From contig CBDCRP010000002.1 in the NCBI GenBank assembly GCA_965221165.1, forward strand, positions 896,001 through 960,000: a stretch of DNA of 64,000 nucleotides. The letters run 5' to 3'. This DNA is from a bacterium. GTDB lineage: Bacteria; UBA8248. The position numbers and the translations under genes are program-made. Positions within the stretch are counted from its first letter, which is position 1. Each line of letters begins with the position of its first letter. Below the pieces are notes generated by a model that saw only the letters and a program-made list of their open reading frames with translations, was not told the origin of the DNA and ran no database searches. Of the stretch, positions 14,248 through 31,557 are shown one piece after another.

Positions 14248-15153
14248 CTACCTGCGCCAATCCAGTCTCTCCGCCATGCGCAGGATGATGTCCGCTCGGT
14301 TGAGCGCGTAGATGTGGAAATGCCTGACGCCCATCGCCATCAACTCCTGAATCTGGGCCGCCGCCAGGTCTGCTGATTTTTCCTGAAACGCCTCAGGCTT
14401 ATCCTCGTAGGGCGCGAGAGCATCGACGACGCTTCCGGGCACGCTCGCCCCGCATTTTTGGGCGAAGCGCTGCACCTGCGCCACGTCGCGCACGGGCAGG
14501 ATGCCGGGGGCCAGGGGTATGCGCACGCCTCTTTTTTTCGTCTGCTCGAGAAACCGCTCCCAGACATGCGCCTCGAAAAAGAACTGGGAAGCCGCGTAAT
14601 CGACCCCCTCGTCCACTTTCTGGACGAAGTGATCCATATCCCTGGTCTTATCGGGCGTTTCGGGGTGGCCCTCGGGATAGCACGCCACGCCTATCGAGGA
14701 GAACCCGCCGAGAGCCTTCAGCCAGCGCACCAGGTCGGCGGCGTAGCGAAATCCGCCGGCCACGGCCTCATCGCGCGTCATTTCTTCGGGAATGTCTCCG
14801 CGAAGCGCCAGAATGTCGCGCACATCGTTTTCCTGATAAACCGCCATCAGGCGCGAGATTTCCGCCTCGTTCGCACCCACGCAGGTGAGATGCGCCACCA
14901 CGCGCCCCGGATAGCGCCTCGCCAGTTCGAGCACGAGTTCCAGCGTGCCCTCCCGCGTGGAGCCGCCCGCCCCGTAGGTGACCGAGGTGAAGGCTATATC
15001 CATCACCTCCTGAATCGCGGCCACCTCGCGCAGCGCGCGCTCCACGGCCTTGCGCCCCTTGGGCGGATAGAGCTCTATGGAAACGCTGACCTCAGGAGAG
15101 CGGATGCTCTCGATAATCGCGGACAATCCACTACCCCTGCCCGGCCCCGCCAT
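14248..15153 (-). CDS. metF: Methylenetetrahydrofolate reductase
   Basis: SIELYPPK, SVTYGAGGS, AHLTC, LALRGD, ACYPEGHPE, QFFF motifs. Confidence 0.93.
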   Translation of the reverse strand: MAGPGRGSGLSAIIESIRSPEVSVSIELYPPKGRKAVERALREVAAIQEVMDIAFTSVTYGAGGSTREGTLELVLELARRYPGRVVAHLTCVGANEAEISRLMAVYQENDVRDILALRGDIPEEMTRDEAVAGGFRYAADLVRWLKALGGFSSIGVACYPEGHPETPDKTRDMDHFVQKVDEGVDYAASQFFFEAHVWERFLEQTKKRGVRIPLAPGILPVRDVAQVQRFAQKCGASVPGSVVDALAPYEDKPEAFQEKSADLAAAQIQELMAMGVRHFHIYALNRADIILRMAERLDWRR

Positions 15154-15239
15154 ACGGACTCCGGGTGCATGAGAGACGCAAAAAAACGGGCACGGGGCAA
15201 ATCCACCCCGCGCCCAGCAACACGAAATCCAAAAACAGG

Positions 15240-15704
15240 TTAGCCCAGACCCTCGACAGCCGCAAAGAGTTTCTCATCGTCTGGCTTCTCGGGCGGAGCG
15301 GCCGTCACCTCCATGTAGGCGACGTTCCCCTCTTTGTTGACGAGAACCACCGCGCGGTTGCTGAACCCCTTATCGTTCAGGAACCCGTAGGCCGCACACG
15401 TTCCCTTGCCGAAGAAATCGCTCAGCAGCGGGAATTCGATGCCGTATTTCTCCGCCCAGGCGGCATGCGCGAACGGACTGTCCACGCTGATGCCGATAAC
15501 CTCGCAGTCGGCGGCGTCGAATTTCGCCTTCTCCGCCTGATAGGCGGGCAACTGCTCGCTGCACACGGAGGAGAAATCGAACGGGTAGAAGCAAAGGAGA
15601 ACGTTTTTCTCTCCGCGAAAATCACTCAGCTTCACCGTATCGCCCTCGGCGAGGGTTCTCGGCAGTTCAAAATCAGGTGCTGCATCACCTACGCTCAGAC
15701 TCAT
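15240..15704 (-). CDS. Peroxiredoxin (AhpE-like)
   Basis: [10 protein letters not shown] peroxidatic motif, GISVDS, PLLSDF. Confidence 0.9.
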
Positions 15705-15717
15705 GAAATAGCCCCCC

Positions 15718-16305
<588 letters not shown>

Positions 16306-18007: not shown

Positions 18008-18745
18008 ATGGACAGAAGCATCTGGGCGACCTGGTACGACCTGCCGAAAGAAGACGAAGAAGAGTACAACGACTGGCTGCACCACACGCACATCAAGGAT
18101 GCGCTCAAACGTCCCGGCTACATGTGGGCGGCCCATTATGAGCTCGTGGACAGGGAATCGCCCAAATCGAAGAAAAAAGACCACTTGGCCTACACGGACG
18201 ACCCATCGATCCCCGGCGGCACGGAGTTTCTTCTCCTCTTCGGGGCCGCGAGCGCGGAGGTATTCCTGAGTCCCAACCCGGCCCAGCTCAAAGAAACCTA
18301 TTCCGATGAAACGAACGCGATGCTCACCAAGAGAATCGGCGAGCGCACGGGCATCTTCACGGAAGTCGACAGGGTGAACGGCCCGGACGCAGCCACCCGC
18401 GCAGTCGGCGGCGTGCCCGCGCCGATAGTCCAGATGGGCACGTTCAACTGCTTCACGCCCGAGGACGATTTCGACCTGAGTTCCTGGTACGCGCAGGACC
18501 GCCTGCCCGCGATGAAGTACATGCGCGGCTGCGTCGGCACGCGCAAGCTCGTCTCCGTGGCGGGCTGGGCGAAGCACAGCATTTTTTATGAATTCGCCTC
18601 GCTCGAGAAAGTCCTCGAGCACTACCCGCGTGTGGACAAGCTCTTCCCGGGCGAGAACGACTGGTCGTATCACGTATGCCAGCGCCTGCTCCACGCGCCC
18701 GGCTCGCCCACGCGCGGCAAGCGCATCTGGCCGCCGGTGGAATAA
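18008..18745 (+). CDS. Hypothetical protein with two EthD/DUF4286-like alpha-beta barrel repeats
   Basis: EEEYNDWLHHTH...PG and DDFDLSSWYAQDRLP...GC repeated architecture; GGGAG RBS. Confidence 0.7.
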   Translation: MDRSIWATWYDLPKEDEEEYNDWLHHTHIKDALKRPGYMWAAHYELVDRESPKSKKKDHLAYTDDPSIPGGTEFLLLFGAASAEVFLSPNPAQLKETYSDETNAMLTKRIGERTGIFTEVDRVNGPDAATRAVGGVPAPIVQMGTFNCFTPEDDFDLSSWYAQDRLPAMKYMRGCVGTRKLVSVAGWAKHSIFYEFASLEKVLEHYPRVDKLFPGENDWSYHVCQRLLHAPGSPTRGKRIWPPVE

Positions 18746-18760
18746 GTGGAGGACGCACTC

Positions 18761-19333
18761 GTGAACTACATGAAACCTATCCGGGTCGACGAAGCCGAAG
18801 GTGAGACCGCGAAACTATTCGAAGGCGTGACGAAAATGCTCGGCCGCGTGGCGAATTCCTTCGCCGTCATCAAGACGAGCCACCTGAACGGGTGTGAATA
18901 CTGACTCGGGCACAATACGGCGCTCGGTCGAGACGCCGGGGTCACCGGAGAGCAGGTGCGCGAGATTTGCTCGGACGCCTATATGGACTCCCCTACGATG
19001 AGCCCAAGGGAGAAAACCGCCGTCCTGTGGGCGGAGCACGTGACGCGCAACACCGCCAAGACGCGCGACGACGTGTTCCAAGAGGTGCGGCGGCATTACG
19101 ATGATCGCGAATTCGTCGAACTCTCCATGGTCATCACCTACTTCAACATGAGAAACCGCTTTCAGGACGCCCTGCGCATTCCGCTGGATGAACCCAAGAC
19201 GATATCGGGCATCACGCTCGGGCGCAGGCAGGACCCGGAAAACCTCAAAACCTATTTCGAGGACATGGCGGCGGACTGGCCCGAGAGTTTCCCCGGGCCG
19301 GAGGAAGACGATAAAGGGGAGCGTAACGCATGA
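18761..19333 (+). CDS. AhpD/carboxymuconolactone-decarboxylase-like protein, probable selenoprotein (CxxU)
   Basis: GTG after GGAGGA; reads ...KTSHLNGCEY-TGA(18902-18904)-LGHNT... in frame with the 18956-19333 ORF; TGA sits at the second Cys of the AhpD CxxC..H motif. Confidence 0.85.
18918..18938 (+). promoter_or_regulatory. Bacterial SECIS-like hairpin
   Basis: CGGCG-CTC-[GGTC]-GAG-A-CGCCG; apical loop begins with G, 21 nt after the UGA. Confidence 0.72.
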
Positions 19334-19773
19334 ACGACAAGCCCGATTTCGTCTGGGAGAATTTACGGGTCGGCATGACCATCGGCGAGCGCAGCCTCAC
19401 GGTGACGCAAGAGATGGTGGACGCGCACTGCGACGCCGTGGGCGCAAAGCGGGAGTGGTATGAGGGCGCCTCTCCCGCAGGCGGCCCCATCGCGCCACCG
19501 ATGATATTCATCAACGACCTGCTCGCCATTTATGATGAGAACTACAAGCGCTTCGGCACCATCCACGCGAAGCTGGGCTACCGCTTCCACCGGCCCGTGC
19601 GCGTCGGCGAAACCGTGCATCAAAAAGTCACGGTCACGGACTTATACGTGAAACGCGAGAAAGGCTGGATAGTGAGCGAGCTTGCCGTTACGAACGAAGC
19701 GGGCGAATTGCTCTTGACCTCCTCTCATACTTCCGTTTTGAGCTTGACGAGAAAGCACCAGGATAATGACTGA
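19330..19773 (+). CDS. MaoC/hot-dog fold dehydratase-like protein
   Basis: IAPP motif, IHAK...FHRPVRVGE; ATGA-coupled to the AhpD-like gene. Confidence 0.8.
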   Translation: MNDKPDFVWENLRVGMTIGERSLTVTQEMVDAHCDAVGAKREWYEGASPAGGPIAPPMIFINDLLAIYDENYKRFGTIHAKLGYRFHRPVRVGETVHQKVTVTDLYVKREKGWIVSELAVTNEAGELLLTSSHTSVLSLTRKHQDND

Positions 19774-20203
19774 AGCGCGCACGGAACTCGAAAAAATGAA
19801 AATCGGCGACGCTCTGCCCGAGCGGACGTATGAAGTGGGCCGGGAGGATATCCTGAAATTCAACCGCTACGTCACCGGCGGCGTGGATACCAAGAACATC
19901 CACACGGACGATGAGGTGGCCCGAAAGGCGGGACTGCCCCGCGCGGTGGCGACGGGCCGCCACCCGGTGTCCTTCATCTCCGAACTCATGGCCGATCATC
20001 TGGGCATAGGCTTCATCACGGGAGGTGAACTGGATGTCTCTTTCGTGAAGCCCATCTTTCCGGGCGACGTGCTCCGCCTTTCGGCGACGCTGAAAGAGAA
20101 AAAACAAGAAAACGGGGGGGCGCGCTATATATTCGAAGTTTCATTCACGAACCAGGACGGCGTCGCCGTCACGCTCGGCACCGCCGGCGGTCGCCTTGCC
20201 TAG
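19766..20203 (+). CDS. MaoC-family dehydratase
   Basis: D..NIHTDDEVARKAGL...VATG hydratase motif; FVKPIFPGD. Confidence 0.85.
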   Translation: MTEARTELEKMKIGDALPERTYEVGREDILKFNRYVTGGVDTKNIHTDDEVARKAGLPRAVATGRHPVSFISELMADHLGIGFITGGELDVSFVKPIFPGDVLRLSATLKEKKQENGGARYIFEVSFTNQDGVAVTLGTAGGRLA

Positions 20204-20218
20204 CAGCCTCCACACCCC

Positions 20219-22327
20219 ATGAACCCACGAAAATCCCTAAAAAGCCTCTTTCACCCGAAATCCTTCGCCGTGGTGGGCGCAACCTCGAACCTGAACCGCC
20301 TGGGCGGCATCCCCCTTAGGCTTACGATGAAATACGGCTTTCCCGGCCCCATCTACCCCATCAACCCGAGGCGTGAGGAGATAGCGGGGCTTACGTGCTA
20401 CCCCGACGTCTCCTCCCTGCCCGAAGCGCCCGAATTCGCCCTCATCTGCACGCCGAGAGAAGACGTCCTCCCCGCTCTCGTCCAGTGCGCGGAGCGAGGC
20501 GTGAAGGCCGCCGCCGTCATCACCTCGGGCTTCGCCGAAGCGGGAGCGGAGGGCGTGGCGCTCCAGGAGAAAATCCTGGAACTCCGCGACGCATCTGGCA
20601 TGCGCGTGCTCGGCCCCAACTGCATGGGGGTGGTGCACGTGCGCTCTAAGCTCATGGCCACGTTTACGATATCCATCCGCGATGAGGACCCGCTCATTCC
20701 GGGGGCGGTGGCCATCGTCACCCAAAGCGGGGCCATGGGGGCGTGCATGCTCACGGGCTTTCAGGAGAGCGGCGCAGGGATCAGCAGCCTCGTGAGCCTG
20801 GGCAACGAGGTGGACGTTGATTTCGCGGAATGCGTCGAATACTTCCTTGACGACCCGCACACGCGCGTCATCTGCGGCTATCTCGAATCGGTTCGCGACG
20901 GCAAGCGCCTTAAAAAAGCCGCCCGGCGCGCTCTGGAGATCGGGAAACCCATCGTCCTGCTCAAGGGCGGCAAAACAGAAGAGGGCGCGCGCGCCGCGCG
21001 CAGCCACACCGCAGCCATCACGACTTCAAGCGACGTTTTCGACGCCTTCGCCGCGCAATACGGGATTCAGGTGCCGGGCTCCATGGATGAGTTCATCGAA
21101 ATAGCGGATTTCCTCGCGCGCTCAAAACCGATTCAAGGAAACGGAGTGGGGATTTTAAGCTTCTCGGGGGGGCTCGGCGCGCTGGCCGCAGATTTGGCGT
21201 CCGAAGCGGGCCTCACGCTGCCCGTCCTCGACGAGAAGACGCAAGAGAAGCTCGGAACCATCCTCCCCGACTACGCGCCCAAGGACAATCCGGTGGACCT
21301 CGTATCCCTGATGGTCAGCCGGCCCGAGAGCCAGCCGCTCAGAACCGCAGGCGAGGCGGTGGCATCGGACGATAACGTAGACGCCCTGCTCTTCCTCATG
21401 GGCATTTATCACCACGTGGGCGCGCAAATTGCGCAGGAGGTGAAGGCGCTGTTCAAATCCTCGGACATACCCGTAGCCTTCACCTGGCTCACCGGGCCGC
21501 GAGAGCAAATACAGGCGTTAAAGAAACAATCCGTGCCCGTCTTCGGCGATTACTCGCGGGCGATTCGGGGACTGGAATCCCTCTTGTCACTCAAACACGC
21601 GAGAGAAGCGGCCTCGTCTCAGCACCTCTCGAAAAACCGCGCACGGAAAGAAGCGGCCCGGCGAAGCATCAAGCGGAGCCGCGCATCCGCCGATGGCTTT
21701 CTCCCGCCCGAGACTTGCGCCGAAATCCTGGACCTCTACGGAATCCCGAGGCCACGGGAAATTCTCGTCGATACGGCGGAAGAAGCACGCAAGATATGGG
21801 AGGAGTATCAAACCCCCGTCGCGCTTAAAACTGTGTCGGAAAGCCTCGCGCACAAGACGGAAGCAGGCGGCGTGCTCCTTCATCTCGATACGCCGGAGCA
21901 GGTTCTGGCCGGGGCCGAAAGGCTCCTCTCCCTTGGCGGTGACGCCCGCCTTCTCGTTCAGGAGATGATCGGAGGCGGCATAGAACTTCTGGTCGGCATA
22001 TCGCGTGATGCGACGTTCGGCCCGTGCATCACGGCGGGATTGGGCGGGGTGTACGTGGAAGCCTTGGACGACGTGGCCCGCCTGCTGCCGCCCTTCGGCG
22101 CCGACCAGGCCCAAAGAGCGCTCTTACGCCTTCGCTCGCGCGTTATCTTCGATGGATTCCGGGGCGGGCCTGCCGTTCAAATTCCGCGCATATCCGATAT
22201 AATGATCAAAATCTCGAGACTGGCGCTTGAATTGAGACACGATATCGCCGAGATGGATTTGAACCCGCTCATCGCCACGGCGAGCGGCTGCCATGCCGTG
22301 GACGTTCGGATAAAAAAGAACTCCTGA
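20219..22327 (+). CDS. Acetate/acyl-CoA ligase (ADP-forming) family protein
   Basis: CoA-binding domain, GPNCMG, QSGA, SLGNE, ARSHTAA phospho-His, HKTEAGGV, EMDLNPL ATP-grasp. Confidence 0.93.
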   Translation: MNPRKSLKSLFHPKSFAVVGATSNLNRLGGIPLRLTMKYGFPGPIYPINPRREEIAGLTCYPDVSSLPEAPEFALICTPREDVLPALVQCAERGVKAAAVITSGFAEAGAEGVALQEKILELRDASGMRVLGPNCMGVVHVRSKLMATFTISIRDEDPLIPGAVAIVTQSGAMGACMLTGFQESGAGISSLVSLGNEVDVDFAECVEYFLDDPHTRVICGYLESVRDGKRLKKAARRALEIGKPIVLLKGGKTEEGARAARSHTAAITTSSDVFDAFAAQYGIQVPGSMDEFIEIADFLARSKPIQGNGVGILSFSGGLGALAADLASEAGLTLPVLDEKTQEKLGTILPDYAPKDNPVDLVSLMVSRPESQPLRTAGEAVASDDNVDALLFLMGIYHHVGAQIAQEVKALFKSSDIPVAFTWLTGPREQIQALKKQSVPVFGDYSRAIRGLESLLSLKHAREAASSQHLSKNRARKEAARRSIKRSRASADGFLPPETCAEILDLYGIPRPREILVDTAEEARKIWEEYQTPVALKTVSESLAHKTEAGGVLLHLDTPEQVLAGAERLLSLGGDARLLVQEMIGGGIELLVGISRDATFGPCITAGLGGVYVEALDDVARLLPPFGADQAQRALLRLRSRVIFDGFRGGPAVQIPRISDIMIKISRLALELRHDIAEMDLNPLIATASGCHAVDVRIKKNS

Positions 22328-30423: not shown

Positions 30424-31557
30424 ATTAACGAATCCGCTGAAAACCCCAAATTCCTGAATGACTTAAAAATCCGCCGCGTCATCAGCGCGCGCACCCGCCA
30501 GACCCGCCTTGGCGGCGCGAAACTGAGGGCCGAAGTTTGGACCGCCATGCAGGAGGCGAACGCCGCCCAGGTGGAAATGACCGAACTGCACGCAAAAGCG
30601 GGCGCGCGCATCGCCGAGATGACGCAAAACGAGGCGGCCTACGTCACGAGCGGCTCCGCCGCCGGCCTCGTGCTGAGCGCCGCGGCCTGCATCACGGGCG
30701 CGAATCCGGCCCTCATGGACAAGCTCCCGTTCACCGACGGGCTCAAGAACGAAATCGTGATCCACCGCTTTCAGAGAAACCACTACGACATCAACATCCG
30801 CCAGGCGGGGGCGCGGCTCGTGGAGATCGGCTCTCATCGCCAGACCCACCCCTGGGAACTCGAAGAGGCCATCGGCGAGAAGACGGCGGCCGTCTTCTAT
30901 TTCCCGGGCCAGTATGCGGGCGGAAACATCCTCAAGCTCGAGACCATCATCGAGATCGCGCACGAAAGGAACGTGCCCGTGGTCGTGGACGCCGCGGCGC
31001 AGCTTCCCCCGTCCGGCAATCTCTGGCGTTTTACCAGGGAGATGGGAGCCGACGCCGCCATCTTCAGCGGGGGAAAGAGCATCGGCGGGCCGCAGAACAC
31101 CGGCATCATCCTGGGCAAAAAAGAGATCATCGAGGCCTGCGCCATGATGGGGAGCCCCAGGTACGCCATCGGCCGGCCCATGAAGGCGGGACGCGACGAC
31201 GTCGTGGGCCTGCTCGCGGCGCTTGCGCATTATCTGGACGGCGGCGAGGCCGCCCAGTACGCCCACAACGATAAGTGGTGTGAATTTTTCATGGAGCGCC
31301 TCGGCGGGATGAGGGGACTCTCGCCCCGCCTCAGACGCCCCAACGCCCTGGGGCAGGATTTGCCGGAAGTCGTGATTGAAATCGACCAAGAATCACTCGG
31401 GAAATCGCGCGATCAGGTCGCCGATGCGCTATGGGAGTGCGAGGTGCGGATCCAGATCGGCGCATCCAATGAGTCGGAACTCTACATCTCCCCCGATCCG
31501 CTCACCGATGCGGACGCGGAATACCTCTGGGCGCGGCTCAAAGAGGTCGTTTCATAA
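30424..31557 (+). CDS. SelA/DgaE-like PLP-dependent enzyme
   Basis: VVDAAAQ, FSGGK (PLP Lys), GPQNTG, IGRPMK; family-like IRRVISA...TRLGG N-terminus extends in frame to an ATT at 30424 after AAGGAG. Confidence 0.85.
   Translation: MNESAENPKFLNDLKIRRVISARTRQTRLGGAKLRAEVWTAMQEANAAQVEMTELHAKAGARIAEMTQNEAAYVTSGSAAGLVLSAAACITGANPALMDKLPFTDGLKNEIVIHRFQRNHYDINIRQAGARLVEIGSHRQTHPWELEEAIGEKTAAVFYFPGQYAGGNILKLETIIEIAHERNVPVVVDAAAQLPPSGNLWRFTREMGADAAIFSGGKSIGGPQNTGIILGKKEIIEACAMMGSPRYAIGRPMKAGRDDVVGLLAALAHYLDGGEAAQYAHNDKWCEFFMERLGGMRGLSPRLRRPNALGQDLPEVVIEIDQESLGKSRDQVADALWECEVRIQIGASNESELYISPDPLTDADAEYLWARLKEVVS

Follow-up and report, generated by a model that had tools for sequence, protein, structure and literature searches.

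The window, by which we mean the whole 64,000-nucleotide stretch of bacterial DNA that was analysed, carries on its forward strand an AhpD-like/CMD gene that we take, with good confidence, to be a thiol-selenol gene with selenocysteine in its active site, present in this genome as a recent deletion allele that is probably impaired. In translation, the gene runs from 18761 to 19333 and comprises 190 codons and a stop, the TGA at 18902 being read as selenocysteine. Its redox motif, C-E-Y-U, occupies 18893-18904, with the Cys codon at 18893-18895 and the selenocysteine codon at 18902-18904, and is followed by the His codon of a CxxU-x-x-H motif at 18911-18913, which encodes a residue (H51) that is invariant in an alignment of longer homologues. 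Judged from comparisons of sequence, TGA 18902 almost certainly encodes selenocysteine, so that the gene product would be a CxxU protein with selenocysteine at the second of the two active-site Cys positions. The sections below set out the reading frame and its decoding, the hairpin that follows the UGA, the deletion that sets this copy apart from its orthologues, and the place of the gene among its paralogues and among known systems.

Reading frame and decoding of UGA 18902

The read-through frame around TGA 18902-18904 is N-G-C-E-Y-U-L-G-H, and it opens at a GTG (18761) that lies 7 nt downstream of a Shine-Dalgarno-like GGAGGA, read directly from the sequence at 18748-18753 on the forward strand. 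The mechanical list of open reading frames offers only two fragments at this place, one of 52 aa (18746-18904) and one of 125 aa (18956-19333). The original prediction had described a start at GTG 18761 behind GGAGGA, an in-frame TGA and an ORF track that begins only at 18956, and all of these are present in the sequence. The start at 18761 can be regarded as fixed, because every one of the eight orthologues in the DNA alignment, which took 8 of the 18 orthologues, starts at the same column, six of them with ATG and two with GTG. At its other end the frame closes with a TGA at 19331-19333, the true stop, and the following gene's ATG, at 19330, overlaps it (ATGA). The Pfam family CMD (PF02627), the sole Pfam family matched, is recognised in the read-through product only (31.4 bits, cut-off 23), and the frame that begins at 18956 has no Pfam match when taken by itself.

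A search of 5.8 billion proteins returned 96 matches. Close relatives, at 79-92% identity, are all pieces of 106-141 aa confined to the region downstream of the UGA, and the distant relatives, of about 180-235 aa, span most of the query. The claim that gene callers truncate this gene is therefore borne out by the public records of its relatives. Because those records hold only C-terminal fragments, 110-131 aa long, the active site of the family is missing from protein databases, which gives the locus its value for annotation in a lineage whose genomes each carry about a dozen of these genes. When the longer relatives are aligned, the column of the U, at which homologues had been expected to carry Cys or selenocysteine, holds Cys in 15 of 16 full-length sequences and Leu in the remaining one, and the His is invariant.

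The same picture emerges at the level of genomes. Matches were found in 34 of the 41 genomes searched, among them every one of the other 22 genomes of the genus, which yielded 7-16 matches apiece, and all but two of the matches listed in this search have an in-frame TGA. At the column of the U, TGA stands in 78 of 79 loci (11 from the window's own genome, here called G000, and 68 from relatives), a count that overstates the independence of the evidence, because the TGA loci are related, coming from one genus and about ten paralogue groups, and are coding. Locus L054 (G025) was omitted from this count, and two G000 loci with no stop in the alignment, C2:359096 (a Cys form) and C3:1877951 (no CxxC), were excluded from the TGA set. 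The lone exception among the 79 is the orthologue L044, which is frameshifted across the active site. In that locus (G005:C2) the sequence passes out of frame and back again across the active site, in an assembly with 16% contamination. In another orthologue, L042 (G001:C1), a second in-frame TGA stands in place of the Arg that the other orthologues show in a D-S-L-R-I-P stretch.

G000, an assembly of three contigs and 3.69 Mb (96% complete, 8.5% contamination), also holds the machinery for selenocysteine decoding. The window's own contig carries a tRNA-Sec (75.9 bits against a cut-off of 47), to which ARAGORN assigns the anticodon TCA; selA (564 bits) and selB (384 bits) adjoin one another, and selD (330 bits) has one in-frame TGA of its own. 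The original prediction had named the presence of selA, selB, selC and selD as a check on its claim, and all four, with selC as the tRNA-Sec, exceed their curated cut-offs. A further check had been whether reads would show TGC or TGT in place of the TGA, and a contig from sequencing run X1, which has no differences from the window over 18500-19500, carries TGA at 18902.

That TGA might be reassigned throughout the genome, for instance to Trp or Gly, is a reading that we find scarcely credible. It has the open frame in its favour and nothing more, and it runs against the fact that TGA ends 18 of the window's 41 long open frames, this gene among them, from which it follows that the code is not reassigned; it also runs against the aligned residue in relatives, which is Cys, and against the presence of a tRNA-Sec and selB.

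The hairpin downstream of the UGA

A SECIS-like hairpin lies at 18918-18938 on the forward strand. Identified from folds and from covariation, it consists of an 8-bp stem, in which the A at 18933 is bulged, and a GGUC loop (18926-18929) that lies 21 nt 3' of the TGA; its folding energy is -11.5 kcal/mol. Folding thus agrees with the stem-loop that had been proposed at the same coordinates, with a GGTC loop 21 nt past the TGA. Constraints published for bacterial SECIS elements, as stated in the accessible part of PMC13188914, comprise a loop of 3-9 nt, a stem of 4-16 bp, a G in the first two loop positions, a spacing of 16-37 nt and a minimum free energy of -7.5 kcal/mol or lower, and the hairpin falls within them with its 4-nt GGUC loop, 8 bp, 21 nt and -11.5 kcal/mol. 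Folding energy is a weak guide here when taken alone, with a z-score of -0.15 against shuffles for the 59-nt stretch, which is not significant, and of -2.14 for the 21-nt hairpin, for which equally good folds appear in 8 of 200 shuffles; because of this weakness, it is the comparative evidence on which we rely.

This comparative evidence comes first from the TGA loci themselves, 76 of 78 of which have a loop in register with that of the window (GGUC in 67, GGCC in 9), and in 73 of the 78 the loop is closed by a perfect stem of at least 3 pairs. Across the 62 distinct sequences, 78.8% of the cells are paired, against 64.6% in shuffles, none of 500 shuffles reaching the observed value, and when the partner columns are slid the share of paired cells becomes 31-61%. 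The closing pair is C-G in 39 of these 62 sequences, U-A in 23 and unpaired in none, and changes on both sides are seen in six of the eight pairs of the hairpin.

A second line of comparison is a Cys control set of 77 relatives, nearly all of them proteobacterial, that share the H-N-T-x-L-G context (two of 79 loci were dropped, the column being uncovered in them). In this set 75 of the 77 have TGC or TGT, with mixed Gly, Leu and Gln codons, and among these 75 such a stem occurs in 4 and GGUC in 8. The other two, L164 and L170, have TGA, and both combine GGUC with a perfect 7-bp stem. Since the stem accompanies both of the TGA forms and only 4 of the 75 Cys forms, the hairpin tracks the UGA and not the amino-acid sequence, and the control shows a SECIS within coding sequence fixing the choice of codons and even a choice of amino acid. 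L164 and L170 belong to Burkholderiales and Rhodospirillales MAGs. Their combination of TGA and GGUC hairpin means that the selenocysteine form of the subfamily also exists outside the window's lineage.

A scan of 18700-19100 against Rfam, with E-values up to 10, gave one chance-level snoRNA match (13.6 bits against 70) and no model for the hairpin. The UGA itself can pair with a UCA about 37 nt downstream, within conserved Ile/Val-Thr codons, and in the window this pairing amounts to 6 bp (18902-18945), which suggests a possible lower stem of the SECIS.

From these elements we infer that selenocysteine is actually inserted at UGA 18902. In the mechanism that we propose, SelB carrying Sec-tRNA(Sec) would bind the hairpin at 18918-18938, the SelB complex would deliver selenocysteine at the UGA, and the ribosome would then proceed to the real stop at 19331. 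The competing notion, that TGA 18902 is a real stop and the locus either a pseudogene with a nonsense mutation or a pair of small genes, is how gene callers and public records treat the relatives, and we nonetheless consider it very improbable. It would have to accommodate a TGA in 78 of 79 loci with coding sequence conserved on both sides of it, the existence of Cys homologues, a hairpin that goes with TGA and is rare in the Cys forms, a complete selenocysteine machinery, and a Pfam domain that spans the TGA. The original claim that the UGA is read as selenocysteine is thus supported by the machinery, the Cys homologues, the conservation of the TGA and the covarying hairpin together.

The deletion allele and its consequences

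The frame of 190 codons that had been predicted stands, and what does not stand is the idea that it represents the normal form of the gene, as the orthologues, such as the one of 226 residues at L026:1336-2013, have 220-229 codons and the window copy lacks 108 nt, or 36 codons, in frame. The 108 nt are present in all eight DNA-aligned orthologues, and the corresponding segment of 36 residues, which lies past the N-terminal helix and ahead of the active site, is present in all 23 translated loci of relatives (L026-L048) and missing in the window alone. At the junction, placed by the DNA alignment with the eight orthologues, the window retains a single 10-nt repeat, TCGCCGTCAT (18861-18870, forward strand), and in L027, L028, L029 and L032 a perfect 10-nt direct repeat stands at both ends of the 108-nt block. 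The 108 nt would have been lost between the two copies of this repeat, most likely by slippage or by microhomology-mediated deletion.

Evidence on whether the allele exists as assembled comes from contigs of other assemblies. The contig from X1, 1089 nt long and with a depth of 15.1, crosses the junction with no differences over 1001 bases; this confirms the junction by another assembler and not by independent DNA, because X1 may be the source sample of the genome. In X2, which derives from the same sample as X1, none of the listed contigs crosses 18861-18865, where a second strain joins, about 13% divergent (20 differences in 152 bases; records 12 and 13). The break is a gap in coverage that speaks neither for nor against the deletion, and X2 may contain a mixture of forms. 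X3, from another study, provides a contig (record 21) in which the sequences flanking the junction are set apart by about 108 additional letters, which is the full-length form in a relative. Runs X3-X23 cover only small shares of the stretch, and the contigs of X23, the sole RNA run, are fragments with 5-19 differences that come from relatives.

Since the separately assembled X1 contig spans the junction, the deletion is probably a real and recent allele. We hold it to be rather improbable that it is instead an assembly artefact or a minority variant, with the real gene at about 226 codons, even though a 10-nt repeat flanks the missing segment, the X2 contigs break exactly at 18861-18865, and frame errors occur in other assemblies or loci of the genus (L044, and C3:1727711 in G000). 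The X1 contig was built separately and crosses the junction at its depth of 15.1 without differences, a repeat as short as 10 nt does not collapse a 31-mer or a long-read assembly, and the break in X2 is explained by the divergent second strain.

What the deletion removes can be seen from a model of a full-length orthologue, P0268 (226 aa; pLDDT 94.3, pTM 0.90). The lost segment corresponds to its residues 37-72 and takes with it the end of helix 32-37, helix 41-55 in full, and the first half (65-72) of helix 65-79, the helix that runs up to the CxxU. Also lost is a Glu, 12 residues ahead of the first Cys, that 15 of 15 Cys forms share and that has an aligned counterpart in PA0269, a Pseudomonas aeruginosa protein of known structure; the spacing is presumably that of the proton-relay Glu of Mycobacterium tuberculosis AhpD. 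In a test for an intact core that includes this conserved Glu, the window copy fails and all 23 loci of relatives pass. Likewise, against the AhpD core model TIGR00778 (cut-off 27.8), the orthologue passes with 30.2 and the window protein fails with 23.6, a shortfall due to the deletion.

For the deleted form, AlphaFold gives a model with a pLDDT of 86.5 and a pTM of 0.75, values that are no measure of stability, with dips in confidence at residues 21-30 and 141-160. Comparison of the window copy with its orthologues gives a dN/dS of 0.187, against a median of 0.171 for the other copies, a ratio that is blind to a recent loss of function; being like that of the orthologues, it indicates that the deletion is recent or tolerated. 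Since the deletion spares the SECIS and the two redox residues, the gene can still give rise to a selenoprotein of 190 residues. To go by the models and the aligned sequences, this protein is probably unstable or catalytically impaired, and its function could be taken over by the genome's ten further paralogues with a TGA.

A different assessment, according to which the product of 190 residues is a natural short version of an AhpD-like selenoprotein that works in full, its deletion being tolerated or adaptive, appears to us unlikely. In its favour, the deletion is in frame, neither the CxxU...H motif nor the SECIS is broken, the dN/dS is not above that of the orthologues, the pLDDT of the model is still 86.5, and translational coupling to the next gene is kept. 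However, the short form is seen in none of the 23 translated loci of relatives; the deletion takes out the invariant Glu, one complete helix and half of the helix at the active site; the confidence of the model drops in the two regions named above; and a recent deletion would not yet have raised the dN/dS. We therefore return to the reading of a recent, probably impaired allele, which carries a lesson beyond this locus in that a good SECIS and an in-frame UGA are no guarantee of an intact enzyme.

Genomic setting and relation to known systems

G000 contains 11 TGA-bearing paralogues of the AhpD/CMD family, that of the window included. The ten others lie on contig C2 at 1020636, 187921, 110073 and 502993 and on contig C3 at 1018093, 1727711, 1642255, 283327, 1878818 and 338242, and all have TGA at the second Cys, in the motifs CAYU, CEIU, CNNU, CDYU, CKYU, CNYU and CFYU. 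An in-register GGUC or GGCC hairpin is found in eight of the ten, the hairpins of C3:1878818 and C3:338242 being placed differently; a further paralogue, C2:359096, is CxxC. The TGA paralogue at C3:1727711-1728366 of G000 is divided between two frames, with the split at about 1728094, through a frameshift or an assembly error.

Around the gene, the forward strand carries a conserved upstream gene of 245 aa (18008-18745), which shares the frame of the AhpD-like gene, ends 15 nt short of its start and is also found upstream of the L038 orthologue; the upstream gene has a weak Pfam match to DUF4286 below the cut-off and no NCBIfam match. Directly downstream, according to Pfam, are two overlapping MaoC/hot-dog dehydratase genes (19330-20203, forward strand), followed by an ADP-forming acyl-CoA synthetase-type gene (20219-22327), a second dehydratase pair and a short-chain dehydrogenase. 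Genes for MTHFR, for an AhpC/TSA peroxiredoxin (15240-15704) and for an Fe/Mn superoxide dismutase stand in a row on the reverse strand at 14248-16305, 2-4 kb upstream, and form an oxidative-stress cluster near the AhpD-like gene. Elsewhere in the window, a weak selA match at 30547-31557 (forward strand) was set aside, as it is of the DgaE/SelA-related PLP ammonia-lyase type (TIGR01437, 187.7 bits, below the cut-off) and not part of the selenocysteine machinery. The gene would be expected to have a peroxidase or disulfide-reductase role.

As to the lineage, NCBI labels the related proteins as those of a Nitrospinae or Nitrospinota bacterium, in records of 110 and 126 aa, and BSepDB, in the part of its description available to us, reports 48-54 selenoprotein genes for Nitrospinota/Nitrospinae-labelled MAGs filed under UBA8248 (PMC13326102). 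These observations allow a more far-reaching scenario, which we offer as speculation and consider improbable as a whole. It holds that the genus, apparently a Nitrospinota-labelled lineage rich in selenoproteins, would have expanded its AhpD-like family (7-16 matches per genome, nearly all with UGA); that the same GGUC SECIS would have been kept within the codons for L-G-(Q/R), so that Gln/Arg covaries with the silent third base of Leu; and that the window copy would be a working 'mini' form that lacks the Glu relay and might, for instance, serve as a selenol donor instead of a peroxidase.

The gene itself falls among relatives that are already known. AhpD-like CxxU selenoproteins were described in 2005 from 27 Sargasso Sea sequences (accessible part of PMC1088965), the GOS metagenomes yielded 299 selenocysteine and 902 Cys AhpD-like forms (accessible part of PMC2398784), and such selenoproteins also figure in what is available of recent reviews (PMC9312934, PMC13188914); the statement in the original prediction that selenocysteine-containing AhpD-like proteins occur in marine metagenomes is therefore in print, at least in the portions of PMC1088965 and PMC2398784 at hand. 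As far as these portions describe it, the AhpD-like selenoprotein family (COG2128/YciW, TIGR01926) resembles the window gene in its CxxU with selenocysteine at the second Cys, in a hairpin that has a G in its loop and lies immediately downstream of the UGA, and in having many Cys homologues. The window copy differs from that family in its 36-codon deletion. The CMD and AhpD-like 2 selenoproteins (PF02627), in the same portion of PMC2398784, share the CxxU as well, and the CMD model gives 31.4 bits for the window protein and 40.4 for the orthologue against its cut-off of 23.

Among NCBIfam models, the window protein is closest to TIGR01926 and to a model named for a YciW-related (seleno)protein. 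Against the cut-off of 81.8 bits for TIGR01926, the window protein scores 41.7, the orthologue 63.5 and a Cys homologue (P0023) 78.5, all below it, and as the window protein and its orthologue lie under this cut-off they form a separate subfamily. The best match of all is NF053654, 'YciW-related (seleno)protein', with 69.9 and 75.5 bits, short of its equivalog cut-off of 310, and the third-best is NF041238, 'alkylhydroperoxidase-related (seleno)protein', with 30.7 and 30.1 bits against 175; NCBI thus already names both of these AhpD-related families as possible selenoproteins. The best-scoring cluster representatives, P0098-P0105, are proteins of 326-362 aa with the family domain in the C-terminal half and two or three matched stretches, and may be tandem or fused AhpD-like forms.

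Of the proteins with solved structures, P. aeruginosa PA0269 (2ijc, 2o4d, 7xw1) is the best PDB sequence match of the orthologue, with an E-value of 1e-18 across the active site, including the Glu. The P0268 model superposes on 6k40, 3c1l, 2prr, 2pfx and 6ohi with TM-scores of 0.77-0.82 normalised to the target, the highest being that of 6k40 (0.82); by the names of the PDB entries, 6k40 is the AhpD of Deinococcus radiodurans, 3c1l is Mlr4105 and 6ohi is the debrominase Bmp8. Unlike the gene described here, the solved AhpD-like proteins have CxxC and not CxxU, their identity is 19-29%, and the window allele lacks part of the fold.

The hairpin, too, has a familiar counterpart in the SECIS of Escherichia coli fdhF, to which the original prediction ascribes a GGUC loop. 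That element is like the window hairpin in having a short upper stem and a small loop that begins with G soon after the UGA. The stem sequence of fdhF is unrelated to that of the window, which is usual among bacterial SECIS elements according to the accessible part of PMC13188914. The mechanism involved is in no respect new, and the gene is of a known kind, to which there are two modest extras: the family has expanded throughout this lineage, and this genome carries a deletion allele.
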